Shown piece after piece: positions 1 to 28,258 of a stretch of DNA of 64,000 bases. The translations under genes and the position numbers were made by a program. Source of the stretch: Haplodiscus bocki (taxonomy: Eukaryota); contig OZ296648.1 of NCBI GenBank assembly GCA_965655095.1, positions 61,256,001-61,320,000 of the forward strand, read 5' to 3'. The notes beneath the pieces are model-generated. The model searched no databases, was not told the origin of the DNA, and saw only the letters and a program-made list of their open reading frames with translations. How positions within the stretch are numbered: the first letter of the stretch is position 1; each line of letters begins with the position of its first letter.

Positions 1-2263
1 AAATCTTTTACATTACGACCCGACTGTGTCCAACTCGATAACTTGGAATAAAAATTTCTGCAACAAGTCACACTTTTTCTGTCCTTCTACACAGAAGACA
101 GCATTGTGGAATCAGTTTTTCAAACTTGTCAGAAAATGTGAGCAGGAGCGAGTCGCGAGTTCCTGTATTCCAGTCCAAACCATGCCTCCAGACCAAATGT
201 CTTGCAACGCAAAGCTAGGTTTTTCTCTCGTCTTGACGAATAACTTGTCCGTTAGTGGCAGCTCCAAATTGAGTTCTCTCCTGGGAATTTTGTACGTACA
301 AATAGTTTTTGATAACGAACGGTTAATTTTTCTGTCTTAAAGCCTTCAAAGTCGATAGCAATAACTTCACTCAACAGCTTAGTTACTTCGAACAGCGTCG
401 ATGTATTAGTTTGAATTTCATAGCGAAAGAAGTTGGGTTGACGTGAACGAACATCGCTAGAAACGTGAATGAACATCGGTAAAAACGCGAACGCAATTGG
501 CTAACATCGGTTTGAAAACGCACCATTTGAATGGATGGTTTTCCCTAAGAATTTAGCATTCGGTGGAAATTATTAAACTAGTGGCCGATTTGATATTTTC
601 TCTGAGACATCTGAATTCTTCGGGTGTCAGCGGGATGACGACGATTTTCCTGGAAATATTACAACCAAGAAACTCGTACCTCCTCCTTAACACGGCAAAT
701 ACCTGTGTGTATGTCACATGTCGGGGGCACCGCCATTGGTTTAGACACGGGGGTAGCTGTAGGTTTTCAAGATCGTTTGCTTTGTAGACATTTTGCTGTC
801 TCTGTTTCATCAAGCAATTGTGCGAATCCTTTTTCCTCGAGCACAGATCAAAGTAGTGCTCAGATTGATTGTGGTTAGAGCAATTATTATTGATACAATG
901 CGAGAAATCTTTTACATTACGACCCGACTGTGTCCAACTCGATAACTTGGAATAAAAATTTCTGCAACAAGTTACACTTTTTCTGTCCTTCTACACAGAA
1001 GACAGCATTGTGGAATCAGTTTTTCAAACTTGTCAGAAAATGTGAGCTGGAGCGAGTCGCGAGTTCCTGTATTCCAGTCCAAACCATGCCTCCAGACCAA
1101 ATGTCTTGCAACGCAAAGCTAGGTTTTTCTCTCGTCTTGACGAATAACCTGTCCGTTAGTGGCAGCTCCAAATTGAGTTCTCTCCTGGGAATTTTGTACG
1201 TACAAATGGTTTTTGATAACGAACGGTTAATTTTTCTGTCTTAAAGCCTTCAAAGTCGATAGCAATAACTTCACTCAACAGCTTAGTTACTTCGAACAGC
1301 GTCGATGTATTAGTTTGAATTTCATAGCGAAAGAAGTTGGGTTGACGTGAACGAACATCGCTAAAACGTGAATGAACATCGGTAAAAACGCGAACGCAAT
1401 TGGCTAACATCGGTTTGAAAACGCACCATTTGAATGGATGATTTTCCCTAAGAATTTAGCATTCGGTGGAAATTATTAAACTAGTGGCTGATTTGATATT
1501 TTCTCTGAGACAGCTGAATTCTTCGGGTGTCAGCGGGATGACGACGATTTTCCTGGAAATATTACAACCAAGAAACTCGTACCTCCTCCTTAACACGGCA
1601 AATACCTGTGTGTATGTCACATGTCGGAGGCACCGCCATTGGTTTAGACACGGGGGTAGCTGTAGGTTTTCAAGATCGTTTGCTTTGTAGACATTTTCCT
1701 GTCTCTGTTTCATCAAGCAATTGTGCCAATCCTTTTTCCTCGAACACAGATCAAAGTAGCGCTCAGAGTGATTGTAGTTAGAGCAATTAATATTGATACA
1801 ATGCGAGAAATCTTTTACATTACGACCCGACTGTGTCCAACTCGATAACTTGGAATAAAAATTTCTGCAAGAAGTCACACTTTTTCTGTCCTTCTACACA
1901 GAAGACAGCATTGTGGAATCAGTTTTCCCAACTTGTCAGAAAATGTGAGCAGGAGCGAGTCGCGAGTTCCTGTATTCCAGTCCAAACCATGCCTCCAGAC
2001 CAAACGTCTTGCAACGCAAAGCTAGGTTTTTCTCTCGTCTTGAGGAATAACTTGTCCGTCAGTGGCAGCTCCAAATTGAGTTCCCTCCTGGGAATTTTGT
2101 ACGTACACATAGTCTTTGATAACGAACGGTTAATTTTTCTGTCTTAAAGCTTTCGAAGTCGATAGCAATAACTTCACTCAACAGCTTAGTTACTTCGAAC
2201 AACGTCGATGTAATAGTTTGAATTTCATAGCGAAAGAAGTTGGGTTGACGTGAACGAACATCG

Positions 2264-2617
2264 CTAGAAACGTGAATGAACATCGGTAAAAACGCGAACG
2301 CAATTGGCTAACATCGGTTTGAAAACGCACCATTTGAATGGATGGTTTTCCGTAAGAATTTCGATGATGGTGGAAATTATTAAACTAGTGACCGATTTGA
2401 TACTTTCTCTGAGACAGCTGAATTCTTCGGGTGTCAGCGGGATGACGACGATTCTCCTGGAAATATTACAACCAAGAAACTCGTACCTCCTCCTTAACAC
2501 TGCAAATACCTGTGTGTATGTCACATGTCGGGGGCACCGCCATTGGTTTAGACACGGGGGTAGCTGTAGGTTTTCAAGATCGTTTGCTTTGTAGACATTT
2601 TGCTGTCTCTGTTTCAT
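2264..2617 (-). CDS. 117-aa ORF of unknown function inside the array unit (MKQRQQNVYK...DVHSRF); representative open copy
   Basis: ATG at 2617-2615, stop at 2264-2266. Open in the copies with stops at 2264, 7687, 8591, 9495, 10396 and 13106; cut short (ISTEC*) in 8 other copies. No evidence of expression. Confidence 0.3.
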   Translation of the reverse strand: MKQRQQNVYKANDLENLQLPPCLNQWRCPRHVTYTQVFAVLRRRYEFLGCNISRRIVVIPLTPEEFSCLRESIKSVTSLIISTIIEILTENHPFKWCVFKPMLANCVRVFTDVHSRF

Positions 2618-5600
2618 CAAGCAATTGTGCGAATCCTTTTTCCTCGAGCACAGATCAAAGTAGTGCTCAGATTGATTGTGGTTAGAGCAATTATTATTGA
2701 TACAATGCGAGAAATCTTTTACATTACGACCCGACTGTGTCCAACTCGATAACTTGGAATAAAAATTTCTGCAACAAGTCACACTTTTTCTGTCCTTCTA
2801 CACAGAAGACAGCATTGTGGAATCAGTTTTTCAAACTTGTCAGAAAATGTGAGCAGGAGCGAGTCGCGAGTTCCTGTATTCCAGTCCAAACCATGCCTCC
2901 AGACCAAATGTCTTGCAACGCAAAGCTAGGTTTTTCTCTCGTCTTGACGAATAACTTGTCCGTTAGTGGCAGCTCCAAATTGAGTTCTCTCCTGGGAATT
3001 TTGTACGTACAAATAGTTTTTGATAACGAACGGTTAATTTTTCTGTCTTAAAGCCTTCAAAGTCGATAGCAATAACTTCACTCAACAGCTTAGTTACTTC
3101 GAACAGCGTCGATGTATTAGTTTGAATTTCATACCGAAAGAAGTTGGGTTGACGTGAACGAACATCGCTAGAAACGTGAATGAACATCGGTAAAAACGCG
3201 AACGCAATTGGCTAACATCGGTTTGAAAACGCACCATTTGAATGGATGGTTTTCCCTAAGAATTTAGCATTCGGTGGAAATTATTAAACTAGTGGCCGAT
3301 TTGATATTTTCTCTGAGACATCTGAATTCTTCGGGTGTCAGCGGGATGACGACGATTTTCCTGGAAATATTACAACCAAGAAACTCGTACCTCCTCCTTA
3401 ACACGGCAAATACCTGTGTGTATGTCACATGTCGGGGGCACCGCCATTGGTTTAGACACGGGGGTAGCTGTAGGTTTTCAAGATCGTTTGCTTTGTAGAC
3501 ATTTTGCTGTCTCTGTTTCATCAAGCAATTGTGCGAATCCTTTTTCCTCGAGCACAGATCAAAGTAGCGCTCAGAGTGATTGTGGTTAGAGCAATTATTA
3601 TTGATACAATGCGAGAAATCTTTTACATTACGACCCGACTGTGTCCAACTCGATAACTTGGAATAAAAATTTCTGCAACAAGTCACACTTTTTCTGTCCT
3701 TCTACACAGAAGACAGCATTGTGGAATCAGTTTTTCAAACTTGTCAGAAAATGTGAGCAGGAGCGAGTCGCGAGTTCCTGTATTCCAGTCCAAACCATGC
3801 CTCCAGACCAAATGTCTTGCAACGCAAAGCTAGGTTTTTCTCTCGTCTTGACGAATAACTTGTCCGTTAGTGGCAGCTCCAAATTGAGTTCTCTCCTGGG
3901 AATTTTGTACGTACAAATAGTTTTTGATAACGAACGGTTAATTTTTCTGTCTTAAAGCCTTCAAAGTCGATAGCAATAACTTCACTCAACAGCTTAGTTA
4001 CTTCGAACAGCGTCGATGTATTAGTTTGAATTTCATAGCGAAAGAAGTTGGGTTGACGTGAACGAACATCGCTAGAAACGTGAATGAACATCGGTAAAAA
4101 CGCGAACGCAATTGGCTAACATCGGTTTGAAAACGCACCATTTGAATGGATGGTTTTCCCTAAGAATTTAGCATTCGGTGGAAATTATTAAACTAGTGGC
4201 CGATTTGATATTTTCTCTGAGACATCTGAATTCTTCGGGTGTCAGCGGGATGACGACGATTTTCCTGGAAATATTACAACCAAGAAACTCGTACCTCCTC
4301 CTTAACACGGCAAATACCTGTGTGTATGTCACATGTCGGGGGCACCGCCATTGGTTTAGACACGGGGGTAGCTGTAGGTTTTCAAGATCGTTTGCTTTGT
4401 AGACATTTTGCTGTCTCTGTTTCATCAAGCAATTGTGCGAATCCTTTTTCCTCGAGCACAGATCAAAGTAGTGCTCAGATTGATTGTGGTTAGAGCAATT
4501 ATTATTGATACAATGCGAGAAATCTTTTACATTACGACCCGACTGTGTCCAACTCGATAACTTGGAATAAAAATTTCTGCAACAAGTTACACTTTTTCTG
4601 TCCTTCTACACAGAAGACAGCATTGTGGAATCAGTTTTTCAAACTTGTCAGAAAATGTGAGCAGGAGCGAGTCGCGAGTTCCTGTATTTCAGTCCAAACC
4701 ATGCCTCCAGACCAAATGTCTTGCAACGCAAAGCTAGGTTTTTCTCTCGTCTTGACGAATAACCTGTCCGTTAGTGGCAGCTCCAAATTGAGTTCTCTCC
4801 TGGGAATTTTGTACGTACAAATGGTTTTTGATAACGAACGGTTAATTTTTCTGTCTTAAAGCCTTCAAAGTCGATAGCAATAACTTCACTCAACAGCTTA
4901 GTTACTTCGAACAGCGTCGATGTATTAGTTTGAATTTCATAGCGAAAGAAGTTGGGTTGACGTGAACGAACATCGCTAGAAACGTGAATGAACATCGGTA
5001 AAAACGCGAACGCAATTGGCTAACATCGGTTTGAAAACGCACCATTTGAATGGATGGTTTTCCCTAAGAATTTAGCATTCGGTGGAAATTATTAAACTAG
5101 TGGCCGATTTGATATTTTCTCTGAGACATCTGAATTCTTCGGGTGTCAGCGGGATGACGACGATTTTCCTGGAAATATTACAACCAAGAAACTCGTACCT
5201 CCTCCTTAACACGGCAAATACCTGTGTGTATGTCACATGTCGGGGGCACCGCCATTGGTTTAGACACGGGGGTAGCTGTAGGTTTTCAAGATCGTTTGCT
5301 TTGTAGACATTTTGCTGTCTCTGTTTCATCAAGCAATTGTGCGAATCCTTTTTCCTCGAGCACAGATCAAAGTAGTGCTCAGATTGATTGTGGTTAGAGC
5401 AATTATTATTGATACAATGCGAGAAATCTTTTACATTACGACCCGACTGTGTCCAACTCGATAACTTGGAATAAAAATTTCTGCAACAAGTTACACTTTT
5501 TCTGTCCTTCTACACAGAAGACAGCATTGTGGAATCAGTTTTTCAAACTTGTCAGAAAATGTGAGCAGGAGCGAGTCGCGAGTTCCTGTATTTCAGTCCA

Positions 5601-8600
5601 AACCATGCCTCCAGACCAAATGTCTTGCAACGCAAAGCTAGGTTTTTCTCTCGTCTTGACGAATAACCTGTCCGTTAGTGGCAGCTCCAAATTGAGTTCT
5701 CTCCTGGGAATTTTGTACGTACAAATGGTTTTTGATAACGAACGGTTAATTTTTATGTCTTAAAGCCTTCAAAGTCGATAGCAATAACTTCACTCAACAG
5801 CTTAGTTACTTCGAACAGCGTCGATGTATTAGTTTGAATTTCATAGCGAAAGAAGTTGGGTTGACGTGAACGAACATCGCTAGAAACGTGAATGAACATC
5901 GGTAAAAACGCGAACGCAATTGGCTAACATCGGTTTGAAAACGCACCATTTGAATGGATGGTTTTCCCTAAGAATTTAGCATTCGGTGGAAATTATTAAA
6001 CTAGTGGCCGATTTGATATTTTCTCTGAGACATCTGAATTCTTCGGGTGTCAGCGGGATGACGACGATTTTCCTGGAAATATTACAACCAAGAAACTCGT
6101 ACCTCCTCCTTAACACGGCAAATACCTGTGTGTATGTCACATGTCGGGGGCACCGCCATTGGTTTAGACACGGGGGTAGCTGTAGGTTTTCAAGATCGTT
6201 TGCTTTGTAGACATTTTGCTGTCTCTGTTTCATCAAGCAATTGTGCGAATCCTTTTTCCTCGAGCACAGATCAAAGTAGTGCTCAGATTGATTGTGGTTA
6301 GAGCAATTATTATTGATACAATGCGAGAAATCTTTTACATTACGACCCGACTGTGTCCAACTCGATAACTTGGAATAAAAATTTCTGCAACAAGTTACAC
6401 TTTTTCTGTCCTTCTACACAGAAGACAGCATTGTGGAATCAGTTTTTCAAACTTGTCAGAAAATGTGAGCAGGAGCGAGTCGCGAGTTCCTGTATTTCAG
6501 TCCAAACCATGCCTCCAGACCAAATGTCTTGCAACGCAAAGCTAGGTTTTTCTCTCGTCTTGACGAATAACCTGTCCGTTAGTGGCAGCTCCAAATTGAG
6601 TTCTCTCCTGGGAATTTTGTACGTACAAATGGTTTTTGATAACGAACGGTTAATTTTTCTGTCTTAAAGCCTTCAAAGTCGATAGCAATAACTTCACTCA
6701 ACAGCTTAGTTACTTCGAACAGCGTCGATGTATTAGTTTGAATTTCATAGCGAAAGAAGTTGGGTTGACGTGAACGAACATCGCTAAAACGTGAATGAAC
6801 ATCGGTAAAAACGCGAACGCAATTGGCTAACATCGGTTTGAAAACGCACCATTTGAATGGATGGTTTTCCCTAAGAATTTAGCATTCGGTGGAAATTATT
6901 AAACTAGTGGCCGATTTGATATTTTCTCTGAGACAGCTGAATTCTTCGGGTGTCAGCGGGATGACGACGATTTTCCTGGAAATATTACAACCAAGAAACT
7001 CGTACCTCCTCCTTAACACGGCAAATACCTGTGTGTATGTCACATGTCGGAGGCACCGCCATTGGTTTAGACACGGGGGTAGCTGTAGGTTTTCAAGATC
7101 GTTTGCTTTGTAGACATTTTCCTGTCTCTGTTTCATCAAGCAATTGTGCGAATCCTTTTTCCTCGAACACAGATCAAAGTAGCGCTCAGAGTGATTGTAG
7201 TTAGAGCAATTAATATTGATACAATGCGAGAAATCTTTTACATTACGACCCGACTGTGTCCAACTCGATAACTTGGAATAAAAATTTCTGCAAGAAGTCA
7301 CACTTTTTCTGTCCTGCTACACAGAAGACAGCATTGTGGAATTAGTTTTCCCAACTTGTCAGAAAATGTGAGCAGGAGCGAGTCGCGAGTTCCTGTATTC
7401 CAGTCCAAACCATGCCTCCAGACCAAACGTCTTGCAACGCAAAGCTAGGTTTTTCTCTCGTCTTGAGGAATAACTTGTCCGTCAGTGGCAGCTCCAAATT
7501 GAGTTCTCTCCTGGGAATTTTGTACGTACACATAGTCTTTGATAACGAACGGTTAATTTTTCTGTCTTAAAGCTTTCGAAGTCGATAGCAATAACTTCAC
7601 TCAACAGCTTAGTTACTTCGAACAACGTCGATGTAATAGTTTGAATTTCATAGCGAAAGAAGTTGGGTTGACGTGAACGAACATCGCTAGAAACGTGAAT
7701 GAACATCGGTAAAAACGCGAACGCAATTGGCTAACATCGGTTTGAAAACGCACCATTTGAATGGATGGTTTTCCCTAAGAATTTCGAATTTGGTGGAACT
7801 TATTAAACTAGTGGCCGCTTTGATACTTTCTCTGAGACAGCTGAATTCTTCGGGTGTCAGCGGGATGACGACGATTTTCCTGGAAATATTACAACCAAGA
7901 AACTCGTACCTCCTCCTTAACACGGCAAATATCTGTGTGTATGTCACATGTCGGAGGCACCGCCATTGGTTTAGACACGGGGGTAGCTGTAGGTTGTCAA
8001 GATCGCTTGCTTTGTAGACATTTTCCTGTCTCTGTTTCATCAAGCAATTGTGCGAATCCTTTTTCCTCGAACACAGACCAAAGTAGCGCTCAGAGTGATT
8101 GTAGTTAGAGCAATTAATATTGATACAATGCGAGAAATCTTTTACTTTACGACCCGACTGTGTCCAACTCGATAAATTGGAATAAAAATTTCTGCAACAA
8201 GTCACACTTTTTCTGTCCTTCTACACAGAAGACAGCATTGTGGAATCAGTTTTTCAAACTTGTCAGAAAATGTGAGCAGGAGCGAGTCGCGAGTTCCTGT
8301 ATTCCAGTCCAAACCATGCCTCCGGACCAAATGTCTTGCAAAGCAAAGCTAGGTTTTTCTCTCGTCTTGAGGAATAACTTGTCCGTCAGTGGCAGCTCCA
8401 AATTGAGTTCTCTCCTGGGAATTTTGGACCTACACATAGTCTTTGATAACGAACGGTTAATTTTTCTGTCTTAAAGCTTTCGAAGTCGATAGCAGTAACT
8501 TCACTCAACAGCTTAGTTACTTCGAACAACGTCGATGTAATAGTTTGAATTTCATAGCGAAAGAAGTTGGGTTGACGTGAACGAACATCGCTAAAAACGT

Positions 8601-11600
8601 GAATGAACATCGGTAAAAACGCGAACGCAATTGGCTAACATCGGTTTGAAAACGCACCATTTGAATGGATGGTTTTCCCTAAAAATTTCGAATATGGTGG
8701 AAATTATTAAACTAGTGACCGATTTGATACTTTCTCTGAAACAGCTGAATTCTTTGGGTGTCAGCGGGATGACGACGATTCTCCTGGAAATATTACAACC
8801 AAGAAACTCGTACCTCCTCCTTAACACGGCAAATACCTGCTTGTATGTCACATGTCGGGGGCACCGCCTTTGGTTTAGACATGGGGGTAGCTGTAGGTTG
8901 TCAAGATCGCTTGCTTTGTAGACATTTTCCTGTCTCTGTTTCATCAAGCAATTGTGCGAATCCTTTTTCCTCGAACACAGACCAAAGTAGCGCTCAGAGT
9001 GATTGTAGTTAGAGCAATTAATATTGATACAATGCGAGAAATCTTTTACTTTACGACCCGACTGTGTCCAACTCGATAAATTGGAATAAAAATTTCTGCA
9101 ACAAGTCACACTTTTTCTGTCCTTCTACACAGAAGACAGCATTGTGGAATCAGTTTTTCAAACTTGTCAGAAAATGTGAGCAGGAGCGAGTCGCGAGTTC
9201 CTGTATTCCAGTCCAAACCATGCCTCCGGACCAAATGTCTTGCAAAGCAAAGCTAGGTTTTTCTCTCGTCTTGAGGAATAACTTGTCCGTCAGTGGCAGC
9301 TCCAAATTGAGTTCTCTCCTGGGAATTTTGGACCTACACATAGTCTTTGATAACGAACGGTTAATTTTTCTGTCTTAAAGCTTTCGAAGTCGATAGCAGT
9401 AACTTCACTCAACAGCTTAGTTACTTCGAACAACGTCGATGTAATAGTTTGAATTTCATAGCGAAAGAAGTTGGGTTGACGTGAACGAACATCGCTAAAA
9501 ACGTGAATGAACATCGGTAAAAACGCGAACGCAATTGGCTAACATCGGTTTGAAAACGCACCATTTGAATGGATGGTTTTCCCTAAAAATTTCGAATATG
9601 GTGGAAATTATTAAACTAGTGACCGATTTGATACTTTCTCTGAAACAGCTGAATTCTTTGGGTGTCAGCGGGATGACGACGATTCTCCTGGAAATATTAC
9701 AACCAAGAAACTCGTACCTCCTCCTTAACACGGCAAATACCTGCTTGTATGTCACATGTCGGGGGCACCGCCTTTGGTTTAGACATGGGGGTAGCTGTAG
9801 GTTTTCAAGCTCGTTTGCTTTGTAGACATTTTGCTGTGTCTGTTTCATCAAGCAATTGTGCGAATCCTTTTTCCTCGAGCACAGATCAAAGTGGCGCTCA
9901 GAGTGATTGTAGTTACAGCAATTATTATTGATACAATGCGAGAAATCTTTTACATTACGACCCGACTGTGTCCAACTCGATAACTTGGAATAAAAATTTC
10001 TGCAACGAGTCACACTTTTTCTGTCCTACACAGAAGACAGCATTGTGGAATCAGTTTTTCAAACTTGTCAGAAAATGCGAGCAGGAGCGAGTCGCGAGTT
10101 CCTGTATTCCAGTCCAAACCATGCCTCCAGACCAAATGTCTTGCAACGCAAAGCTAGGTTTTTCTCTCGTCTTGAGGAATAACTTGTCCGTCAGTGGCAG
10201 CTCCAAATTGAGTTCTCTCCTGGGAATTTTGTACGTACACATAGTCTTTGATAACGAACGGTTAATTTTTCTGTCTTAAAGCTTTCGAAGTCGATAGCAA
10301 TAACTTCACTCAACAGCTTAGTTACTTCGAACAACGTCGATGTAATAGTTTGAATTTCATAGCGAAAGAAGTTGGGTTGACGTGAACGAACATCGCTAGA
10401 AACGTGAATGAACATCGGTAAAAACGCGAACGCAATTGGCTAACATCGGTTTGAAAACGCACCATTTGAATGGATGGTTTTCCCTAAGAATTTCGAATTT
10501 GGTGGAACTTATTAAACTAGTGGCCGCTTTGATACTTTCTCTGAGACAGCTGAATTCTTCGGGTGTCAGCGGGATGACGACGATTTTCCTGGAAATATTA
10601 CAACCAAGAAACTCGTACCTCCTCCTTAACACGGCAAATATCTGTGTGTATGTCACATGTCGGAGGCACCGCCATTGGTTTAGACACGGGGGTAGCTGTA
10701 GGTTTTCAAGATCGTTTGCTTTGTAGACATTTTCCTGTCTCTGTTTCATCAAGCAATTGTGCGAATCCTTTTTCCTCGAACACAGACCAAAGTAGCGCTC
10801 AGAGTGATTGTAGTTAGAGCAATTAATATTGATACAATGCGAGAAATCTTTTACATTACGACCCGACTGTGTCCAACTCGATAACTTGGAATAAAAATTT
10901 CTGCAAGAAGTCACACTTTTTCTGTCCTTCTACACAGAAGACAGCATTGTGGAATCAGTTTTCCCAACTTGTCAGAAAATGTGAGCAGGAGCGAGTCGCG
11001 AGTTCCTGTATTCCAGTCCAAACCATGCCTCCAGACCAAATGTCTTGCAACGCAAAGCTAGGTTTTTCTCTCGTCTTGACGAATAACTTGTCCGTTAGTG
11101 GCAGCTCCAAATTGAGTTCTCTCCTGGGAATTTTGTACGTACACATAGTCTTTGATAACGAACGGTTAATTTTTCTGTCTTAAAGCTTTCGAAGTCGATA
11201 GCAATAACTTCACTCAACAGCTTAGTTACTTCGAACAGCGTCGATGTATTAGTTTGAATTTCATAGCGAAAGAAGTTGGGTTGAAGTGAACGAACATCGC
11301 TAAAACGTGAATGAACATCGGTAAAAACGCGAACGCAATTGGCTAACATCGGTTTGAAAACGCACCATTTGAATGGATGGTTTTCCCTAAGAATTTAGCA
11401 TTCGGTGGAAATTATTGAACTAGTGGCCGATTTGATATTTTCTCTGAGACAGCTGAATTCTTCGGGTGTCAGCGGGATGACGACGATTTTCCTGGAAATA
11501 TTACAACCAAGAAACTTGTACCTCCTCCTTAACACGGCAAATACCTGTGTGTATGTCACATGTCGGAGGCACCGCCATTGGTTTAGACACGGGGGTAGCT

Positions 11601-13429
11601 GTAGGTTTTCAAGATCGTTTGCTTTGTAGACATTTTCCTGTCTCTGTTTCATCAAGCAATTGTGCGAATCCTTTTTCCTCGAACACAGACCAAAGTAGCG
11701 CTCAGAGTGATTGTAGTTAGAGCAATTAATATTGATACAATGCGAGAAATCTTTTACATTACGACCCGACTGTGTCCAACTCGATAACTTGGAATAAAAA
11801 TTTCTGCAAGAAGTCACACTTTTTCTGTCCTTCTACACAGAAGACAGCATTGTGGAATCAGTTTTCCCAACTTGTCAGAAAATGTGAGCAGGAGCGAGTC
11901 GCGAGTTCCTGTATTCCAGTCCAAACCATGCCTCCAGACCAAATGTCTTGCAACGCAAAGCTAGGTTTTTCTCTCGTCTTGACGAATAACTTGTCCGTTA
12001 GTGGCAGCTCCAAATTGAGTTCTCTCCTGGGAATTTTGTACGTACACATAGTCTTTGATAACGAACGGTTAATTTTTCTGTCTTAAAGCTTTCGAAGTCG
12101 ATAGCAATAACTTCACTCAACAGCTTAGTTACTTCGAACAACGTCGATGTAATAGTTTGAATTTCATAGCGAAAGAAGTTGGGTTGACGTGAACGAACAT
12201 CGCTAGAAACGTGAATGAACATCGGTAAAACGCGAACGCAATTGGCTAACATCGGTTTGAAAACGCACCATTTGAATGGATGGTTTTCCCTAAGAATTTC
12301 GAATTTGGTGGAACTTATTAAACTAGTGGCCGCTTTGATACTTTCTCTGAGACAGCTGAATTCTTCGGGTGTCAGCGGGATGACGACGATTTTCCTGGAA
12401 ATATTACAACCAAGAAACTCGTACCTCCTCCTTAACACGGCAAATATCTGTGTGTATGTCACATGTCGGAGGCACCGCCATTGGTTTAGACACGGGGGTA
12501 GCTGTAGGTTGTCAAGATCGCTTGCTTTGTAGACATTTTCCTGTCTCTGTTTCATCAAGCAATTGTGCGAATCCTTTTTCCTCGAACACAGACCAAAGTA
12601 GCGCTCAGAGTGATTGTAGTTAGAGCAATTAATATTGATACAATGCGAGAAATCTTTTACTTTACGACCCGACTGTGTCCAACTCGATAAATTGGAATAA
12701 AAATTTCTGCAACAAGTCACACTTTTTCTGTCCTTCTACACAGAAGACAGCATTGTGGAATCAGTTTTTCAAACTTGTCAGAAAATGTGAGCAGGAGCGA
12801 GTCGCGAGTTCCTGTATTCCAGTCCAAACCATGCCTCCGGACCAAATGTCTTGCAAAGCAAAGCTAGGTTTTTCTCTCGTCTTGAGGAATAACTTGTCCG
12901 TCAGTGGCAGCTCCAAATTGAGTTCTCTCCTGGGAATTTTGGACCTACACATAGTCTTTGATAACGAACGGTTAATTTTTCTGTCTTAAAGCTTTCGAAG
13001 TCGATAGCAGTAACTTCACTCAACAGCTTAGTTACTTCGAACAACGTCGATGTAATAGTTTGAATTTCATAGCGAAAGAAGTTGGGTTGACGTGAACGAA
13101 CATCGCTAAAAACGTGAATGAACATCGGTAAAAACGCGAACGCAATTGGCTAACATCGGTTTGAAAACGCACCATTTGAATGGATGGTTTTCCCTAAAAA
13201 TTTCGAATATGGTGGAAATTATTAAACTAGTGACCGATTTGATACTTTCTCTGAAACAGCTGAATTCTTTGGGTGTCAGCGGGATGACGACGATTCTCCT
13301 GGAAATATTACAACCAAGAAACTCGTACCTCCTCCTTAACACGGCAAATACCTGCTTGTATGTCACATGTCGGGGGCACCGCCTTTGGTTTAGACATGGG
13401 GGTAGCTGTAGGTTTTCAAGCTCGTTTGC

Positions 13430-13925
13430 TTTGTAGACATTTTGCTGTGTCTGTTTCATCAAGCAATTGTGCGAATCCTTTTTCCTCGAGCACAGATCAA
13501 AGTGGCGCTCAGAGTGATTGTAGTTACAGCAATTATTATTGATACAATGCGAGAAATCTTTTACATTACGACCCGACTGTGTCCAACTCGATAACTTGGA
13601 ATAAAAATTTCTGCAACGAGTCACACTTTTTCTGTCCTACACAGAAGACAGCATTGTGGAATCAGTTTTTCAAACTTGTCAGAAAATGCGAGCAGGAGCG
13701 AGTCGCGAGTTCCTGTATTCCAGTCCAAACCATGCCTCCAGACCAAATGTCTTGCAACGCAAAGCTAGGTTTTTCTCTCGTCTTGAGGAATAACTTGTCC
13801 GTCAGTGGCAGCTCCAAATTGAGTTCTCTCCTGGGAATGTTGTACGTACACATAGTTTTTGATAACGAACGGTTAATTTTTCTGTCTTAAAGCCTTCAAA
13901 GTCGATAGCAACAACTTCACTCAAC
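13430..13925 (-). pseudogene. Frameshifted DEDD-exonuclease-like small gene of the type carried by Polinton/Maverick-like elements (last copy given; present in every full array unit)
   Basis: Manual - strand translation across frameshifts: (L/M)SEVVAIDFEGFKTEKL / PFVIK-LCVR... / ERKT*LCVARHLVWRHGLDWNTG / FLTSLKN*FHNAVFCVGQKKCDSLQKFLFQVIELDTVG / NVKDFSHCINNNCCNYNHSERHFDLCSRKK. This fits the recalled pattern IDFEGF...FIIKEL...HGLxWxxG...YVKGxEK...LDxLGCP...C..H...CAxxK. Confidence 0.6.
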
Positions 13926-13939
13926 AGCTTACTTACTTC

Positions 13940-14541
13940 GAAGAACGTCGATGTAATAGTTTGAATTTCATCGCGAAAGAGGTTGGGTCGAGGTCTTGCG
14001 AGTGACCACTGATAGTTTGCTCGCAATTATGTAGAAAAATTGTTTCTAGGAGACAAGCTAACCGGCAGACTCCGTTCTTGTGGAAAAACCAACTATTCAG
14101 AGTTTTGATTTTTCGGGAACTGTCTCTCGATAAACATCACTATCAATGAATAGAGATATTTCTTTACACAGACCTATGATGAAGCGAAATCAATCTTCTA
14201 CAGTTGCATAAAATAAGAAATTGTCCTTCGATGGTAGGAGATCGTTTGCAGGAAACTAATTGCAATTTCCCATCGGATATATAGAGGTTGTGTGAGTAAA
14301 GTGAAGAGAACTTTCATGGAAACCGTAATTACCGTTGGTAGTTTGATTTGAAAAATTCAAAAATTCTGCCGTGAGTAAAGCAGACTGATTCTTGTTTCTG
14401 TTCAAATTGCCTAAGTCCCTTTAATGTCTCAGTTATTTTCGTTGAATTGCCAAGTTCATCTAGAAGCAAAAGATTTCTCATTGCTGTACTTTGACGATTG
14501 TTATCAAATAACTCATCATTCTAGTAACTATTATTCGTCAT
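13940..14541 (-). pseudogene. Degenerate ORF directly upstream of the array's exonuclease-like gene (parent-locus flank)
   Basis: Reads MTNNSY*NDELFDNNRQSTAMRNLLLLDELG... and ends LETIFLHNCEQTISGHSQDLDPTSFAMKFKLLHRRSSK*. The tail PTSFAMKFKLLHRR is included in every array unit. Confidence 0.4.
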
Positions 14542-15599
14542 GGTTCTGAATCCGGTCTGTGACGGCTAAACAAATGGCCTGTAGTCGTTCGGTGTTTTAT
14601 ACTAATGATCATGAGTACTTTCGACTCTTTTGGATACTACTCTGTGGTGAAGCACCAGTAATCGCCTGACTTCCTGAATAGTACTAACCTATCGGTAAAG
14701 ATTGGAATTTTTGATACCAGGTGATTCGCAGAAGTTCCATCTTTTTTTCCCAAAATTTCGAAATGGCCCTTCTGTGTGTTTGTCTAGATTCTCCAGGCAG
14801 GTAGTTTCTGAAAGTCATACTATGGTCTTCTGTGTTTATTTTTCGACAACATAATGCTTTCATTTCCACTTTCCGTAAATCGAAGATGGACTTTTTTATC
14901 TTCTCTTCTCCCTCCAAGGATTGTGACCTGACTGATGGTTGACATTTTCGTGACACAGATATCAAATCCACAACATGTACTTTTCACATCTCACCCTGCC
15001 CAATTTCTCCGGGCTTTTGGATGCCCGGCCTCTGGCGTCAAGTGAAAAGAAAAATGTTTCTCCGTTCAAACAATAGCCGTCATAATTGACCGCGCTTTGC
15101 CTTCCATGATACTTTTTGTCAACGTCATCACTATCGGCCTAACCAAAACTGATGTGACAAACTATGAGTATGGAACAAAGTGGGAGAACCGTATTCATTG
15201 AAACGCAAATTTTACTCAACTGATTTTCATCCATCTAGTCAACGAAATGTTCTTCTCTGGTTAACTTTGTTTGAAAACTTCTGATGGCTTTATAGAAGTC
15301 CTTTTGTTTCTTCGTGTGGAAAACTGGTTCTTGCCGTGTTTGTGTCCATTTGATTTTTTCTAAGCTTTACTCAGGTTAGTTTAGGTATCAGCATTAATCA
15401 GAAAATTACGGTAGTGTTTCGGAAGTTAGACCAGCAGTGACGAAATAAAGTATTAGCGCGTAGTATCGAATTCCACTGTTTCTAGAAGTTTTGGTGTACG
15501 CAATCTCGGGGATTATTCCTCGTTAGGCGACTACCCCTTGGCAAGATTTCCTGTGGGCGGATATTGCAAGTGTTTACCTAATCCTAAACCTAGAGCCAC

Positions 15600-16174
15600 T
15601 TACGGCTGATAGCTTCTCTACTCAGGTGTACACCCTTCATCACATATCAAGCTTTTTAAATCAGCATATTTCATCTAAAGCACTTATTGAGTTGCACTTA
15701 ATGCATTGGGAATGGAATCAGGAGTCGATTTTCCTAGGTTTTTTCAGGATTTCAAGGCAGAGATCCACTAAATAACCAAGTAGAAAATAATCATGTGTTT
15801 TACAAACTGACTGTTACATCTGCACAAAGTATAAAGGAAAAGTACCCTGATGCTATTATGAAGTGTGATTATAGAGATTATAAGTTTTCACTGGCTTATG
15901 GAGAAATTAAATCATGTTTCAGACCTTTAACTAAATATGCTTCCTCACAATACTTAACACAAAACGATTTTAGATCTGAAATTAATATTTTTAATTTTTA
16001 TGTTTTCAGATACGTTATCAAAACTAATATAGTTCTCAACAACCTATAACAGTACCTTTTTAGTTTGTTGCAGATGAAGTAATTTCAGGCGGTATACTTG
16101 TATCCGCACTAGTCTTGATGAATTAAAAAATATCTGTTAGTACTGATGGACAAAGACATTATGATTTACTTTAA
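15600..16174 (+). pseudogene. C-terminal remnant of a Polinton/Maverick-like major capsid protein
   Basis: LGMESGVDFP...FYKLTVTSAQSIKEKYPDAIMKCDYRDYKFSLAYGEIKSCFRPLTK...YLTQNDFRS...FYVF...SALVLMN*KISVSTDGQRHYDLL*. Matches recalled Polinton capsid C-termini (VTSAQ...EKYPD...YGQIK...DFRS...ALVLTN...SSDGQRxFDL). Contains stops and frameshifts. Confidence 0.6.
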
Positions 16175-16443
16175 TTTCAATATTTCATTTGAAAACTAAT
16201 TTTTTGAGATGAAGCTTCCTCATCGTCTGAGTCTATTGGTATTGTTGATGAAGAGTTCGAAGAATGCAGAGATCCATTGTGTGGAAGTCAAACTAAGAGA
16301 AAATGGATTTTTTATATGTTCATTTTGTTACATTTCAATAACTTTAGCATGAAGTAAGAGAATATTTGTTGACGATGGTTTTGTTTGTGTTTTTGGTGAT
16401 TTTTCAGCTTTATAGAAAGTTGATTAGTTTTTTTATAAAAAAA

Positions 16444-19400
16444 TCAACTCCATGGATCGGTTTCGATTGCATTTAAATAGATTCTATCATCAAAGGAACT
16501 GAGGTCATTTATATCAAGTTTTTGCTAATATTCTTCGTGATTATCATTTTTAATCACAGAATTTTTGACATATTGTGTGTTTACTCGTCTTTTGAATAAA
16601 GTAATGGTTCTCGAATTTAATGACTAGCTGTTTTAGGTTTTTCTTTTACTTTGACTTCTTTTTATTCCTCGTTGCTACATTTTAATGCATAACCCTTGGC
16701 TCTTAGTGCACAGGCTTCATCTGTCCAGGAACTTTCAGGAGCTTCTAATTCAGATTTACGGATTACTTTTCTTCTCACTGTATATAAGTTTTTTTCAAAT
16801 TGAAATTACTAAAATCGTTTTTATTTTCTCTTTGGTTTAAATTGTTCATATAGTCGATCAGAGATCTCCATTAAAACTAACTATTAAAGAATCACAGTCC
16901 CTAGAATGTAGACACTTGTAGTTTTCTATGGTAAGTCTAATTCATATGACGTTCAGATTTTTCTCAAGTAGCATTCAAAATAAAAAGTTTTTTGAACTTT
17001 ATCTCTGTTTTATTAAATGAGAAAGCTCAGAAGTTTTCTTTCAAGTTTGATACGGTTGACCTAAATTCATTCTCCCTCTTCGATGTATTCTTTTAACCAT
17101 TTGAAGTTTTTACTCCCAATCTAGCACCTAATTTTTCATAGTTTTTCCATAAAATGCAATATTAAGAAGTTCCTAACTTTCCCCAGATATTTTTTTATAG
17201 TTGTTTCACTTTTTTTCCATCCATTTTTGCTTGACGCCACTGTTCTTCTTCAAAACTTACTGTTTTGTGGAATTTTGTTTCAAGCATTTTCTTCTTTCAA
17301 AAGTTTTCTCTGATGCACAAAATATTTCTTTTTTAATATGATCACACATGACTTTCATGTGTGGTCTATGGTTTTATGTTTCATATTCAACATATGCTTA
17401 CTGCATTTTTCAATATCTTTTTTTTCTGGTCAAACTGGTAAATTACGATTCTGCAGACTTCCTTATTTTGTGTATTGTGAATCTACTGCAACAGAAAATC
17501 CTGTTTTAGCATCATCGGGTGATGCTTCTCTATTAGTGTTTCGCACGTACCCTGCGCCTTTTACACCAGATATTCTACTTCTATTTCTTGCTTCAAATGA
17601 AAGAATTAGTTCTCTGTCGTGTATATTCTCAAGTACTACTTGCGGAAAATGCAAGATAGCATTCCATAATTATGCCGGTAACGATCCAAAATATAATCAC
17701 CTGATTTCATTTTCCTTAATACTCTCAAGTATGTCTGCCAATATTGTAACAAATGATTTTTTAATTTCTTTCGTTTCTTCTGTATTGAGATTCATTTTTT
17801 TATTTTGAAAGTTCTAGTTGCCACTTCCTGAATATTCATTTCCGTCCAAGGATGCGGAAAAAATCTTGTTCTGTCTGGGTAAGAAGTTGGTTATCTTCTG
17901 GTTTCTCAATTCCTCATAGATGTGCTACTTTTTTTAGTAAATAGTCAATTCAACACAAGTTGTTTTTCTTGAAAATTTTTGTTCGCTCTGCGCATAAGTA
18001 GCGAGATCGCTTCGGATAATCTTTGTCTGAAAATTTTACAAAATCTGCCAAGTTATCGACACTTTAGCTCCTGAGTCAAAAAGACTCTATAAGTTTTGAA
18101 CAACCATTCTCTACTGACATGTTTTTGTTCATTTGTGTTGGGAATAACTTTTATTTGGACTTTTTTGCTGAATGTTTCAAAGAACGATTGAGGGTCATGT
18201 TTACTACAGTCGTAAATTTTTACAGGAACGAATAAGGAATGCTATTTTTTTACCGTTTGAGTTACAGGCTCAGCACTTTCCTGTTAAACGACAATGGTGT
18301 CAGTTTTTTTCGGGATGAATTTGATTACATCCTTCTATAAAGTTCTTGTTGCATAACCAACGTTTTTAGCCACGTTGAACTTTTTTCTTGGCTTTTCTAG
18401 ACGTAATAATTTCCCTGTATTCCTGAAAAGTGACGCTTTTTTTCCAGTTTTTTCATATCTTTATCAAACCATTCTACTACTTGTTGTCCAAAATATTAAT
18501 GGTAGGTACTCCGATCTGGTATTGGGTTTATCTGTTTTTTAATGTCTCTGATTTTTCAAATTATCCATAAAAAACAGAAATTCGATTTTATTTTTTTCTT
18601 TCCCTTTTTATAGAATCAGGAGCATTCATAGTTTCGGAATCGGCATAAACTCCACCAGCAATAGGGTTTTTCTATTAATATTTCTTACAATGAAATTCTA
18701 TCTTTTGCGTTTTTCATAAGACATGATTCTTGCTCCGTACATAGTTTTTGGAGCTTTTTTGGAGTAATAATTCGACGAAAGTGAGCGAAACTATTTCAAT
18801 ATACATGCTCCCTACCACGATTTCCGGAACGCTTTGATCATTTATTTCTTCATTTTTCATCCAAAGTTTGAAAAATGAAGTTTCTCCTATCGGAGTTGCC
18901 GTTTGTGAAATTGATCTTTTTGGTAAAAATCCTTCAGATCTCCAACCATTACCTTTGTTTTTGAAGATTTTTGATTGCAATTCATAGTTCAGGTTCAATA
19001 TTTTTGCATTTGTTTTTTGCAGATCTTAGTAGTTGCGTTGTAAGTTTCTAACTAACATTTCATTGGGATTATCAGTGAAAGTATAAGGTTCAAACAGAAG
19101 CTTGAAAGATGTTGCATTTTGTTTGGTTGGTTGTTCGTTTCAGAATATGTTCTACGAATTGATGTACAAATAGGATTACCATCTCCCTCATGACGTTCCT
19201 TCTTTCCTTTCGTCCTCGACATGTATGGAGACTTTTGAATTAACATTTTCGTTTTCAGACGAATGTATTTTTTTGTAAATCTATCTTTAATAAAATTTGG
19301 ATCCGTTTCGTTGGAAGTAAATGGATATTTTATCATTTTATCCACTTCATTTTTTAAAATGTCTTGGATTTATCATGAGTGGTTTATGTCTTTTCGATCT

Positions 19401-19790
19401 ATAAGTTATAAGTATCATAATGTCTTTTCCCAAATCTGTTTGCTAACTCTTTTCAAATGATTTACAGTATGTTCTTGGGATGTATTTCAACTCTCAACAT
19501 ACAGCTCACATACTTTAGAAGACCTTCTACTGCCCTATGGGACGCTTTGGGATTTTCTTTTGATGAGATACTGGGTTTTCATTTCTTGACCCCAATTTTC
19601 TGTTCACAGTTTTTTTTAACATATATTAGATGTTAATTTGTTCCCGTTGAAACAATATTCAGATGGTATATGTGCTTCGGAAGCGACTTTTTTAAACTGT
19701 TTACATATGTGACATTTGGTTTTATCTCCTGTTTTAAGAAAATGCTATTTTGATCTTAATTGTTTATAGATACTGTAATATTCTAATGAT
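16444..19790 (-). pseudogene. Protein-primed family-B DNA polymerase (pPolB) relic of a Polinton/Maverick
   Basis: Ordered - strand motifs: N-terminal Cys/His fingers (~19500-19720), ExoI-like VYADSE (~18640), IKVIPNTNE..VS.ENGCSKLIES (~18090-18160), LENIHDRELILSFEARNRSRISGVKG (~17560-17640, RGGIS region), motif B LLNIAFYGKTM (~17135-17170), motif C LHSRDCDSL (~16885-16910), WTDEACALRAKGYALKC (~16680-16730), C-terminus LSSFDDRIYLNAIETDPWS* ending at 16444. Heavily disrupted. Confidence 0.85.
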
Positions 19791-19939
19791 CATTTTTTTA
19801 AATTAAATTCTACAATGCAGAAGAGCATGATCTGTTTTCAATATTTTTGGAACCGTTAAATCTTGGCGCTGTTAATTTTTTTGAAGTTTGAGAGACAATG
19901 AACCCTACCCTAATCGGAAATACTGATTTCCGGAGAAGT

Positions 19940-21760
19940 AGACAACCAATAAACCAGTGGACAGGAAAAAAATGTACAGTATCCACATGCAAATTAAAGG
20001 CCGAGAAGACAGATTGAAGAATAACTTTTTTTGAGTTGTAATTTCCGCAATATGACAGAAGTAGAGTGATTAAATGAAGCTGAAAATAAGAGATTTGAAG
20101 AAAGAGAATTCTGAATTGCTACTGAATAGTTGATTATTCTGGAAATTAATTCTTCAAATATTCAAAAGATTTTTCCTCACACCACGCGCTGAAGATAGCC
20201 ACTAAGGAATAAAGTAGAGTATTACAAATAAGAAAGGATCGAAACTTGAAGTCCATCAAAAAACAAACATAGCCCTTTTACAGATACTTTTTCTATGTAA
20301 AGTTGAAAAGCAATCGTCGCAATGACATCTTGAGCAGTCCCTGGGTTTAGTTGATCTCGCCATTTTTTTGATGAAGTACTATATAAAAAAATACTTATTC
20401 ATAAGGTTTTCGTATATATACGTTGAATTGTAGTTTGTCGAAATTTTAGAATTTTGGAAGTTGATATCTGGAAAACTCCTGTTTGGCTTGTGCTCATCCA
20501 GTGACCAGTCAAAAGGTTACTGTTGGCAGAAGCTCTTGAGAACTGGGAGGGAGCAATTTCATACGTTTTAGGCGCTACTTCTTGACTTATAGTTTCAGCT
20601 TTTGAAGTTTTCTACTTTCGCTTTTCCACTTTTTTCTCGAGGGCTACTGGTTTCATTCTGCTCGTCCAGTGTTCGTTCGAAAACCTTTTGTCCTAGGAAT
20701 CTATGGAGAACTGTGATATTTAACTTCATAACATCCTTGCAATAGTTCGCGACATGTAGTGTGAATTCCGAAGTTTGTACTACTTTCCGTGTTCTTTAAA
20801 GTTTTTTTCTCAATATACTACTAGTTGGATTGTGCTCATCGAGTGCTCGTTCTTGCCTATCGTATGTTCCACTGAAATTCCCTAACAAGCAATAACAGAA
20901 AGCACTAATAGATACTGGTGCCTGTGCAAATGCAATCAGTGAAAAAGATTACGAAGACATGAAATCATCATTTGGAACGACAGCAACCATCTCAAAACCT
21001 TCTGAGGTCAGTAATGTTAAATTAGCTTCAGGACAACTTATACCGGTGCGTGGCCAAACTCGAGTTTTCAATAGCAAAATAATATTTCAAACAATATTTT
21101 TTAGTAGTACTTCCTAACACGAATAGCATCATTTTGGGAAATCCATTTTTCAAAAACAATATTGAACTTTACCCAAGAGAGAACCTGATGAAGTTACCTG
21201 ACTTGTCGCTTCAGTTGATTGAAATATCAACGCAATCAGCTGAAATCGGAAATCTCCGATACACTATCAGAACACTTGACAAATGCGTCATCCCCCCAAC
21301 CAACAAACAACACTAAATTGCAATCTCCAAACGAAAAACAAACCATATGCTGATGTATGTGGTGTAGTCGAACCAAAAGTAAATTGGAAGAAAAAACTAG
21401 ATTGTGCAGCACCTCTTCCTTATCGCGAACTGACTCTGAAGCAAATTTGTAATTATCTGCCTGAAACCTCCAAAGCAATGAGATCACAATTCCCCGAAAT
21501 TCGGACTTCGCCTACTTCAATTTTCTTTCACCACACCAACCGGAAACGTTAATCTCGACATACCGCAATTACTAACATCGGCGGAATTCAAAAACCAGAG
21601 GACCTTGAGCATGAAATCAACCAGCTGATAATTGATGAAGAATTCATTGCAAACTCTCAACCACCTACACCAAAACCAGACAACAAAAAATTTCTGGTTC
21701 CCAACACCAGAAACATGCCTCAACCCATCAGCACTGAAAGATGTTGAAAAGGATATTCAC
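19940..21760 (+). repeat. Direct repeat copy 1 (~1.82 kb near-identical, preceded by a ~170-bp diverged leader from ~19770)
   Basis: Matches 30481-32301 at constant offset 10,541 (ORFs 21134/31675 and 21517/32058 are identical). Three substitutions noticed by eye: 20058/30599, 20518/31059, 20754/31295. Confidence 0.97.
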
Positions 21761-24050
21761 TGACTTCTGAAAACTACAAAAACTAAATAGTATAGACCCA
21801 CACATTAGTATTGATACCGTAACCAATTCTTGCAGAGATTCGAATGGAACGAATTTATACTGAAAGCGGACGAAAAATAACAAGTTGAGGAATTACTGGT
21901 TGAAATTTCGGATAGTTTCGCAAAAGGCAGATTTGATGTTGAATTTAATTCTAAAATCTCCATGAAATTAACGCCAGAGTACTACTAACCGGTCAACACT
22001 CAAAGCCACCCAACGCCGATTCACTTACGTGAAAACTTTGGGTAGAGCTCGATCTCCTGGAATATTTCGGAATCATCACAAGTCTCAACCATTCAAAATA
22101 CAATACAGCTGTCCATTCTTTGCACACCGCAAACCAAATGGTGAACCCAGAATTCTAGCGGACTTACGCCGAATCAATCACCTCTTGTTACATGACTATC
22201 ATAACAGTTTCTTGATTTCAACAATGGCAGACGCAACAGCAGAGTTTGCGGGAATATCAATCTTTTGTAAACTAGGTTGCTCTCAAGTGTACCACTGTGT
22301 ACAAATGGCTGACCCTCTTTCGGTACAACTACTTGCATTCAATTTTGCTTGCCGAGCTATGGCTTATCAGAGATTAGCTAGAAGTCTGAACAGATCTGTT
22401 GCAGGCTTCAGTGCCCTTGAGAATCCACTTAGAGCGATGTCTCTCAGCAAATGTTTGCACACAGTTCATGGATGATATTGGATGTGGAGTAGAATCAGTT
22501 GAAAAACTCATACCCAACTTCCGACTCATCCTAAAATGCTTACCAAGATCAGGACCGAAACTATCGCTAGAGAAATGTGTCTTTAGATCACAAAAAGTTA
22601 GTTTCCTTTGAAACGTCATAACAAAAGAAGGCCTACAACCTGAAGACTAAAATTGAAAACTTCCTGAAAACACTTGAAATAACAAAATCCTTGAAGCAAG
22701 TAAAACGACTAATCGGTTTCCTACAAATCTTTTGCAGTTTCATCCCGAATCTGAGCGAACACCTCATACTTTTCTACAAACTTTTGCGGGAAAATGTTTC
22801 ATTTGGAATTACAGATGAGATCAAAGTTGCTTTCGAAAAACTTAGAGACAAACTCGAAACTTCCACAACGCAAACACATAGACTTGCCAAACCAGGACTC
22901 GAATATGCCATTTTATGTGACGCTAGTTATCACTCGAGTGGATTTGTAATATTTATAGAAGACTATGTCCAAAACAAAGAAGAAACTGTTAAATTTTATG
23001 CAGCTGTGTCATTTGGATGTGAAGTTTTCAATACAACGCAACTAAGGACGTCAATATACTGCAAGGCGTTCCTATCCCTCTACTTTGCCTCGGACGCTTT
23101 CTCTCATTTGATATGGGGAGGTGAAAAACCAATACTCATACTGCCTGACAACAAAAGTTTAACCAGATTTCTCCAAGCCAAAACAATTCCTCCATCCCTT
23201 TGGATTTATGTGGATAGATTTACAGCATTTAGCATTGTGTTAAGTCACGTTCCAGGAAAAGCCAATGTTGCAGCAGATTTTTTATCTCGCTTGCGATCAA
23301 TCCTGAACGAAACATATGATTTGAAACTTACAGACAGAATCCCAATCAGAGAAATTGAAGTTGATGTACGAGCAAAGCTACCAGACAACACAAACAGTGA
23401 GTTCTTTGCAGACAATTTACCAGTTGACTCACTCCAAGTAGTCGATATAAACACACTGATAACCCTCAAACAATCTGGATTTTATGATCAGGCAGTGAGC
23501 CAACTAAAATTTCACACCGAACATGGAACTATTAGTGACGAAATGCAACAAGAAAATAAGAAATTAACGCCACTCCACACACCAACCCAATGAATGACTA
23601 TCCCGAATTGGAAACAACAATAGCTAATCTGAAAAAAGAACAAAATTCTGAGCCGTTGATAACAAAAGTGATCAAATGGTTGCGAACTGACTCTGCACCT
23701 ACAGCAAGCATCTACTCTACTGGAGAAGAACAGAAGTACCTGAAGCAGTTTCGACGATTGTTCGCTGGAAGTGGAATACTCTACAGAAGATACTTCGCAC
23801 ACAATGGCAAAATGTTTAACAAACAATTGTGCCTGCCAAAAACAGTGGTAAAAGGAGTCGTGTATACAATACATAACGCCCCAACTGGAGAACACTTGAG
23901 AGTAACGAGAACCATTGAGGAATTCAGAAAACGCTTCTATTGTCCGAACTATGTGGAATTAGTCAAAGATTTTTATCAGAAACTGTTCTACATGCTTCCA
24001 AATGAACCAAGTACAGCCCTCACGACTTAGACCACCACGACAAGAAGTGC
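20865..24050 (+). pseudogene. pol: Gypsy pol pseudogene (aspartic protease, reverse transcriptase, RNase H, integrase zinc finger; integrase core missing)
   Basis: Protease ALIDTGACANAIS (~20902-20940) and ILGNPFF. RT YSCPFFAHRKPNGEPRILADLRRINH...KLGCSQVYH...AYQRL...QFMDDIG (~22100-22480). RNase H ILCDASY...DNKSL...HVPGKANVAADFLSR (22900-23290). HHCC IHNAPTGEH...RFYCP...IRNCSTC (23870-23995). Many stops and frameshifts. Confidence 0.95.
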
Positions 24051-24221
24051 TAAACGAAGAAACCAAGGACAACGGTCGAAGCAAGAAACTCTGTCGATCT
24101 TCCTAATAATCGTCGCCAACAACGCCAGCAAATGCAATTCGTAAAAAGACCAGGAGCGAGACAAGAGGGATCATCTGAAAAACGAAGTAGAACCGATTTG
24201 AACCAAATCCAACTAGCTCAG

Positions 24222-24645
24222 AGTACCTCAAAAGTGACCATAGTGGCAGACGATCTTTTTGGAACTTCCTGCTGTATGGGACACTGTTTCTTCTGACTTT
24301 TTCATGAGAGCAGGTATCGCTAAGCGATTGGATCAACTCTACCCAAAAATCAAACAAAGCTTAGAGGACTAACACCAGGATCAGTGTTTGCATTCTACGA
24401 TAGATATTCACGAAGATGGATTTCGTAACCAAACCCAAATACTTTCAAACCCTTCTAGGACGAATTAAAAAACAGCCTCACCATGATCCGCAACCACGCC
24501 GACTCTCATGGATTGAAAAACATTCGACTACCGGAACTAGGATGTGGCTTAGACAAACTTCAACCATCAATAGTGCACAAACTTCTACGCAAAGTTTTCC
24601 AAAAGTCCCAAGTAGCGGTGACAATCTGTATAAGACGCCACTAGC
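24222..24645 (+). pseudogene. TARG1/OARD1 (Macro_Poa1p-like) macrodomain relic inside the Gypsy element
   Basis: Across ~4 frameshifts and 1 stop: KVTIVADDLFGTSCCMGHCF-SDFFMRAGIAKRLDQLYP...LTPGSVFAFYDRYSRRWI-VTKPKYF-KPF*DELKNSLTMIRNHADSHGLKNIRLPELGCGLDKLQPSIVHKLLRKVFQKSQVAVTICI. The hallmark motifs GDLF, HCxSxDxxMGAGIA, LVTK and PxIGCGLD are all present in order. Confidence 0.88.
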
Positions 24646-27600: not shown

Positions 27601-27877
27601 CATTCATTCGAGACCCTAACCTCCCAACAGTTAGGGATTCATTCTCCTTACCCGAGAACGCAGAACCTAAGAAAATGCTAACATTTTTGCATGACAAAAT
27701 ATCTATCCAAGAACGGCTGGAGCAGTTTGAAATTCAGTTGAACTTTTCTAGTTCGAACTGAAGAATTACTTGAAACCGTATTAGCGAACAGGTATGGAAA
27801 ATTTTTTTACAGTCCATTGGCAACTGATACCGTAAGAGCTACAATTCTAAGTAAGCCGACTATCGACACCACCCGGA

Positions 27878-28237: not shown

Positions 28238-28258
28238 AAATCTAAAAGACCTCCCACA

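Follow-up and report, generated by a model that had tools for sequence, protein, structure and literature searches.

The 64 000-nucleotide stretch of the Haplodiscus bocki genome analysed here (the window) opens inside a tandem array of roughly 0.9 kb units, which raises the question of where such an array came from and whether its source can still be recognized beside it. Self-BLAST gives a period of 901–904 bp at 95.5–97.7% identity over window positions 1–13994 and reveals no comparable array in the rest of the 64 kb. The units run head to tail; 15 are full (901–904 bp, starting at positions 1, 905, 1808, 2712, 3616, 4520, 5424, 6328, 7231, 8135, 9039, 9943, 10844, 11747 and 12650) and the last is partial (13554–13994, 441 bp), in agreement with the at least 15.5 highly similar units of a preliminary description of this DNA. 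The array is open at the left edge of the window, and its left end, left junction and full length fall outside. The G+C content of the array is 41.6%, compared with 31.7% in the polymerase relic described below and 36.9% in the near flank. A 22 bp sub-repeat is present at the unit junction (13086–13165; period 22, with 36 of 58 positions matching). A 50 bp segment of this junction (13110–13159) recurs on other contigs with different flanks and is thus part of a dispersed repeat; the loose ends of the contig matches lie at 13110/13159 and 10398/10449.

Comparison of the 15 full units in pairs gives 0–45 differences per 904 positions, with a mean of 26. Two pairs are identical (units 1 and 5 and units 11 and 15), and a regular higher-order repeat was not found among these units. 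The units contain 72 variable sites, 54 of which have two alleles, are common to at least two units and occur in blocks. All four allele combinations are present for 333 of the 1431 site pairs, which thereby fail the four-gamete test, and the proportion failing grows with distance, from 8% of pairs less than 150 bp apart to 56% of those separated by more than 750 bp. Such a mosaic of variants common to the units would reflect repeated unequal exchange or gene conversion. The head-to-tail order and high similarity of the units are those of a satellite, as is the concerted evolution by non-reciprocal exchange that is visible in the distance-dependent four-gamete failure and the mosaic units.

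One gene can be recognized in each unit, a broken Polinton gene on the minus strand (13480–13951 in the last copy) of a small DEDD/Maelstrom-like family. An IDFE.F motif is found in all 16 copies, as is an HGLD.NTG motif, which lies in another frame and has an internal stop in three of them. In a frameshift-tolerant alignment to a profile of the family, the last copy scores 56.1 bits over columns 1–159 of 174 (13951 to 13489; maximum of 100 shuffles, 20.6), and the 15 copies scored all fall between 39.8 and 56.1 bits, compared with 15 ± 2 bits (maximum 20.2) for 240 other stretches of the window and a maximum of 25.5 for 300 shuffles. Since the relatives that make up the profile had been retrieved with motifs from the window itself, the scoring was repeated with the 11 corresponding columns set to zero. 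The score is then 30.7 bits against a maximum of 23.3 in 300 shuffles, with three of the 15 copies reaching only 21.8 bits, below this null maximum. The assignment of the unit gene to the Polinton family, judged by its sequence, stands after removal of the motifs.

In the last copy, the reading frame shifts at around 13870, somewhere from about 13850 to 13710 and again at around 13580; it also contains one stop. Each of the 15 alignment paths requires three or four frame changes, which fall in the same regions throughout, and the only indel that distinguishes full units within the gene is an in-frame one of three bases in unit 12. Thus, the breaks are common to the copies and predate the array, and both the shared frameshifts and the death of the gene before amplification, as originally proposed, are borne out. 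The polymerase relic in the flank provides a contrast in the extent of decay, its alignment path requiring 15 frame changes and nine stops, while the units are at most 5% apart.

The preliminary description had counted three genes per unit, adding the tail of an 'ORF-A' and a whole 117-residue open frame to the gene described above; neither addition matches anything, and the portion of the unit upstream of the match to the family profile is only about 45 bases long (13951–13994). The 117-residue frame (minus strand, 13106–13459 in the last copy) is probably not a working gene. It is full length in only six of the 15 units, rather than whole in every one as had been supposed; it runs on in one and has a stop at codon 86 in eight. 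It lies in the frame used by the final portion of the Maelstrom-like gene, with no intervening stop, and ends within the 22 bp sub-repeat, the core of which is the dispersed piece common to other contigs. Its variants (six synonymous and 25 nonsynonymous) resemble those in the other two frames, and on this count the frame appears to show no sign of selection. Sequence, Pfam and profile searches found no homologues of the frame, and a structure model of it has a pLDDT of 43.8. A presumed PC4-like resemblance is not supported, as a narrow profile of four phage PC4 proteins gives 10–12 bits, the level expected by chance. The 'ORF-A' zone corresponds to flanking DNA (13995–15740) of single-copy depth with short matches to contigs of the same genome; 42 profiles run on both strands gave no score that stood out in 84 tests, and identification of 'ORF-A' as a packaging ATPase is likewise not supported.

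Direct searches with the decayed window sequence were mostly fruitless as a consequence of that decay: homologue searches returned the sequence itself or nothing, the Atlas search gave nothing usable, Pfam searches of 18, 78 and 18 window pieces recovered only the domains of an LTR element, and scans of viral contigs with window pieces found no relative, the sole locus returned being an unrelated phage. A scan of metagenome and viral contigs with a DNA pattern of the two motifs instead produced 129 loci. Both motifs occur in one frame in 23 rows of these fetched loci, 17 of which form one family of proteins mostly 150–190 residues long; the other six were chance matches and were dropped. The family alignment (A1) contains 14 of the 17 members, with L075, L083 and L100 omitted as near-duplicate, short or containing X. 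The neighbours of these genes encode a double-jelly-roll (DJR) capsid protein, an rve integrase with a chromodomain, an A32-type ATPase, a PLA2-like protein and a DNA_pol_B_2 polymerase, and the family gene lies directly downstream of the DJR capsid gene in six of the seven family loci longer than 5 kb. Two further Polinton loci, fetched by their ATPase alone, also carry the family gene (E = 7 × 10−41 and 5 × 10−30). Intact homologues thus exist in Polinton loci with capsid, integrase, ATPase and polymerase, as the preliminary description had anticipated, but the A–B–C gene order that it expected was not found in these relatives. A search of representative sequences added a fragmentary relative (P0005, E = 6 × 10−5); its other match was a chance repeat protein. 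P0005 is a 213-residue database protein in which a fragment of the family gene occurs three times in tandem; it appears that this gene has been amplified independently elsewhere. Two Polinton-like contigs (L075, 794–2952, and L041, 2–1782) each carry a pair of divergent Maelstrom-like paralogues, one on either side of a probable protease gene and oriented towards it.

The gene in the window is known by its sequence only, and its fold is approached through an intact relative, whose model (pLDDT 90) has a predicted DEDD/DnaQ (RNase H) fold. The best Foldseek TM-scores of this model are to Maelstrom (0.63–0.66). In a wider structure search, DnaQ (PDB entry 1j53_A; Z = 13.1, r.m.s.d. 2.9, 140 aligned residues) and Maelstrom (9nhc_F; Z = 12.1, r.m.s.d. 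3.2, 155 aligned) are about tied as matches to the modelled fold, and among the BFVD viral models ichnovirus ORFs rank at the top of the named matches, together with a Drosophila adintovirus protein (TM-score 0.84). At E = 0.1, the Pfam models for Maelstrom and for exonucleases are matched by none of the 14 relatives, and a sequence search of the PDB gave no match below E = 0.66. In the alignment columns of the 14 relatives, as distinct from positions on the MAEL structure, a Glu and a His are invariant and a C-terminal Cys/His/Cys is present in most; the signature given for the MAEL domain in the accessible part of PMC2628886 is EHHCHC. For the DEDHD catalytic set, the comparison covered the first two positions: the initial Asp is invariant in these 14 proteins, and a Gln stands at the acidic position that follows. 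If active at all, the family is predicted from the model to be a small RNA/DNA-binding or nuclease-like domain. The relatives in Polinton loci, the modelled DEDD fold and the window score that survives removal of the motifs agree with the earlier suggestion of a DEDD-like family in Polintons.

The parent element itself was sought in the flank with profiles built from the neighbour genes of the relatives, which are independent of the window sequence and mostly insect-like. The C-terminal part of a DJR major capsid relic lies on the plus strand at 15747–16034 (32.9 bits over columns 268–366 of 407, 96 codons, no frame change; maximum of 40 shuffles, 23.3); this modest score is the weakest of the three flank assignments, and members of the profile match the Pfam DJR-like_dom. 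A protein-primed polymerase relic occupies the minus strand at 16432–18571 (82.0 bits over columns 73–818 of 824; maximum of 15 shuffles, 26.9), its profile members matching Pfam DNA_pol_B_2. A Polinton-type (rve) integrase relic is found on the plus strand at 38215–39011 (86.6 bits over columns 16–272 of 313, with six frame changes and two stops; maximum of 40 shuffles, 22.7), and tblastn with an intact Polinton integrase finds the same relic at E = 8 × 10−6. The polymerase, rve integrase and capsid that characterize a Polinton are therefore all represented by relics beside the array, which gives substance to the earlier statement that the parent context is still attached, although none of the three had been named.

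The attached element is incomplete and altered. No clear profile score was obtained for a packaging ATPase, an Ulp1-type protease or a minor capsid protein between 12.6 and 64 kb of the window; these genes may have decayed, be too distant from the mostly insect-like profiles or lie to the left of the window. Neither the unit nor the flank gave a long inverted match to the remainder of the window, outside which one of the two ends would fall, and the element bounded by terminal inverted repeats that had been envisaged was thus not recovered. The capsid relic and the Maelstrom-like gene point apart, whereas the two genes are in tandem in six relatives; the gene order of the parent therefore differs from theirs. 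The integrase lies 19 kb from the polymerase, beyond an LTR element and a further 6 kb of DNA, and so may belong to a second element. On the right-hand side of the LTR element, the polymerase profile gave no clear continuation (26.0 bits, compared with a maximum of 23.7 in five shuffles). A polymerase stretch (17131–17163) is present in 7–9 other contigs per sequencing run and a capsid stretch (16131) in two; by eye, the differing flanks of these contigs continue the same genes. Thus, with short stretches of both relics on other contigs, sister Polintons exist in the genome.

The LTR element between the polymerase and integrase relics (plus strand, 19774–32300) is a decayed Gypsy-type retroelement with 2 kb LTRs that are 98.3% identical (31 substitutions in 1988 columns, or 1.6% apart). 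It contains Pfam RT_RNaseH and Integrase_H2C2 domains, and further frames at 28.5–30.3 kb, which have no Pfam match, may represent an envelope-like gene. Inspection by eye found no clear target-site duplication. Other features of the window include a 200 bp imperfect palindrome at 42238–42438 (73%), perhaps a MITE, a short inverted pair (55363–55441 and 56116–56194), a diverged repeat of 178 bp period at 50872–51481 and an assembly gap of 200 N at about 59650–59850; a tRNA search of the window found none.

Four public short-read runs contain this stretch; they represent two samples of a single study, and the assembly itself may have been built from them. In three of the four, a single 6.1 kb contig extends from 13882, within the last unit, to 19968, and the right junction of the array thus exists as assembled. 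Collapsed unit contigs have depths of 574.6, 180.6, 845.3 and 426.5 in the four runs, compared with flank depths of 47.5, 8.47, 42 and about 55, corresponding to ratios of about 12, 21, 20 and 8. As variants split 31-mers, the 15.5 units of the window would be expected to give a ratio of about 9.5. The observed ratios of 8–21 therefore suggest a genome total of very roughly 13–35 units, although a contig depth is not itself a copy number. Read depth, which had been put forward as a means of confirming the copy number, suggests in this way that the array is not single copy, but what it supports amounts to tens of units; this suggests a single small array with neither one copy nor thousands.

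Taken together, the results describe a small, young array that derives from a Polinton and still has its parent beside it. It was very probably formed when a slice of a decayed Polinton containing a broken gene was amplified in tandem, giving a neutral, exchange-driven, incipient satellite at a single locus. A Polinton, an endogenous DNA virus of the adintovirus type, would have integrated long ago and then decayed, leaving the four gene relics seen here. Much later, a 904 bp slice comprising the already broken Maelstrom-like gene and downstream DNA would have been duplicated in tandem; where two units meet, the short sub-repeat and the dispersed piece may have been the point of exchange. The mosaic of variants suggests that the initial pair would then have grown to some tens of copies through unequal crossing-over and gene conversion. 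With units at most 5% apart and LTRs 1.6% apart, growth of the array and insertion of the LTR element would have taken place on a similar timescale, much shorter than that of the decay. The likely order of events is thus integration, long decay, and then array growth and LTR insertion. No working protein is made from the array, which is most likely neutral.

The alternative that the array is under selection, either because it supplies small RNAs (piRNA or siRNA) directed against related Polintons or because it acts as a seed for chromatin or a centromere, is unlikely. The related Polintons that such RNAs would act upon are present, as indicated by the polymerase stretch at 17131–17163 in 7–9 contigs per run and the capsid stretch at 16131, and the gene that was amplified is similar to a protein of the piRNA pathway; however, where the unit matches other contigs at 90% identity or above, the matches are short, the variants look neutral and the copy number is low. 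A particular form of this idea, which we consider very unlikely, is that the dead Maelstrom-like gene, of a kind that may mimic or antagonize the piRNA pathway, was amplified by the host and that small RNAs from the array silence it in related Polintons of the genome.

We give almost no weight to the explanation that the assembly expanded a short duplication or haplotypes that had been collapsed. The two identical pairs of units could be read in this way, the array is spanned by no contig, and the runs that attest to it may be those from which the assembly was made. Against this, an artefact of that kind would have to account for 72 variable sites, 54 of them common to at least two units in blocks, and for a short-read contig depth 8–21 times that of the flank. 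Scarcely credible at all is a host origin of the unit, from a DEDD nuclease or Maelstrom gene whose retrogene or pseudogene lies beside a Polinton by chance, for although the family fold is about equally close to cellular DnaQ-type nucleases and Maelstrom (Z = 13.1 and 12.1), its sequence relatives are compact genes within Polintons, the Pfam Maelstrom and exonuclease models match none of the 14 at E = 0.1, and the capsid and polymerase relics lie only 1.8 and 2.5 kb, respectively, from the unit gene.

The origin of the array in a decayed Polinton can be compared with what is described for these elements in the accessible parts of PMC8502044 and PMC11161782. The protein-primed polymerase, rve integrase and DJR capsid relics resemble the genes of Polinton/Maverick elements (adintoviruses), and the small accessory gene of the family stands beside the capsid gene in intact elements; here, in contrast, all of the genes are broken, the ATPase, protease, minor capsid protein and terminal repeats are undetected, the capsid and Maelstrom-like genes diverge, and one slice has been amplified in tandem. 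Supplementary Fig. S2 of PMC8502044 carries the gene label 'MAEL' beside 'Hexon', and the position and fold of the present family suggest that it is the gene so labelled in that figure. The fold of the intact-relative model resembles those of Maelstrom (the MAEL domain) and DnaQ/DEDDh proteins, from which the family differs in consisting of stand-alone viral proteins of 150–190 residues with 8–17% identity and no Pfam match, and the copies in the window are, in addition, dead.

Two satellites of comparable derivation are reported in the portions of the literature accessible to us: LmiSat34-299 of the locust, which matches Polinton coding sequence (PMC4935994), and the 1656 bp CgiSat52 of the oyster, which is listed as DNA/Polinton (PMC8268682). 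They share with the present array tandem units that match a Polinton. As presented in those portions, they are library matches derived from read clustering, whereas here the unit is in place and joined to its parent, the gene within it can be named and the order of events is readable. The exchange suggested by the variant mosaic corresponds to the standard model of satellite homogenization by unequal exchange, as outlined in the accessible part of PMC12692304. No tandem array in place within a Polinton relic was described in the literature covered, which is weak evidence since subscription journals lie outside this coverage. The description of the locus as an unusually legible satellite origin therefore holds in that unit, parent and event order are found at one locus, but Polinton-related satellites as such had already been published for the locust and oyster, as far as the accessible parts of those reports go.

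Satellites derived from mobile elements, Polintons included, were thus already known, mostly as library matches. In this window, insertion, decay, tandem duplication and the reshuffling of variants are all legible at a single locus, which offers a clean test of how satellites with kilobase units are born. As a side result, the model of the intact relative lends structural support to a predicted DEDD fold near that of Maelstrom in the small gene that accompanies the capsid gene in many Polintons, one of a family that Pfam misses. The locus is a tidy example of a known route by which repeats arise, unusually well placed beside its parent relic.
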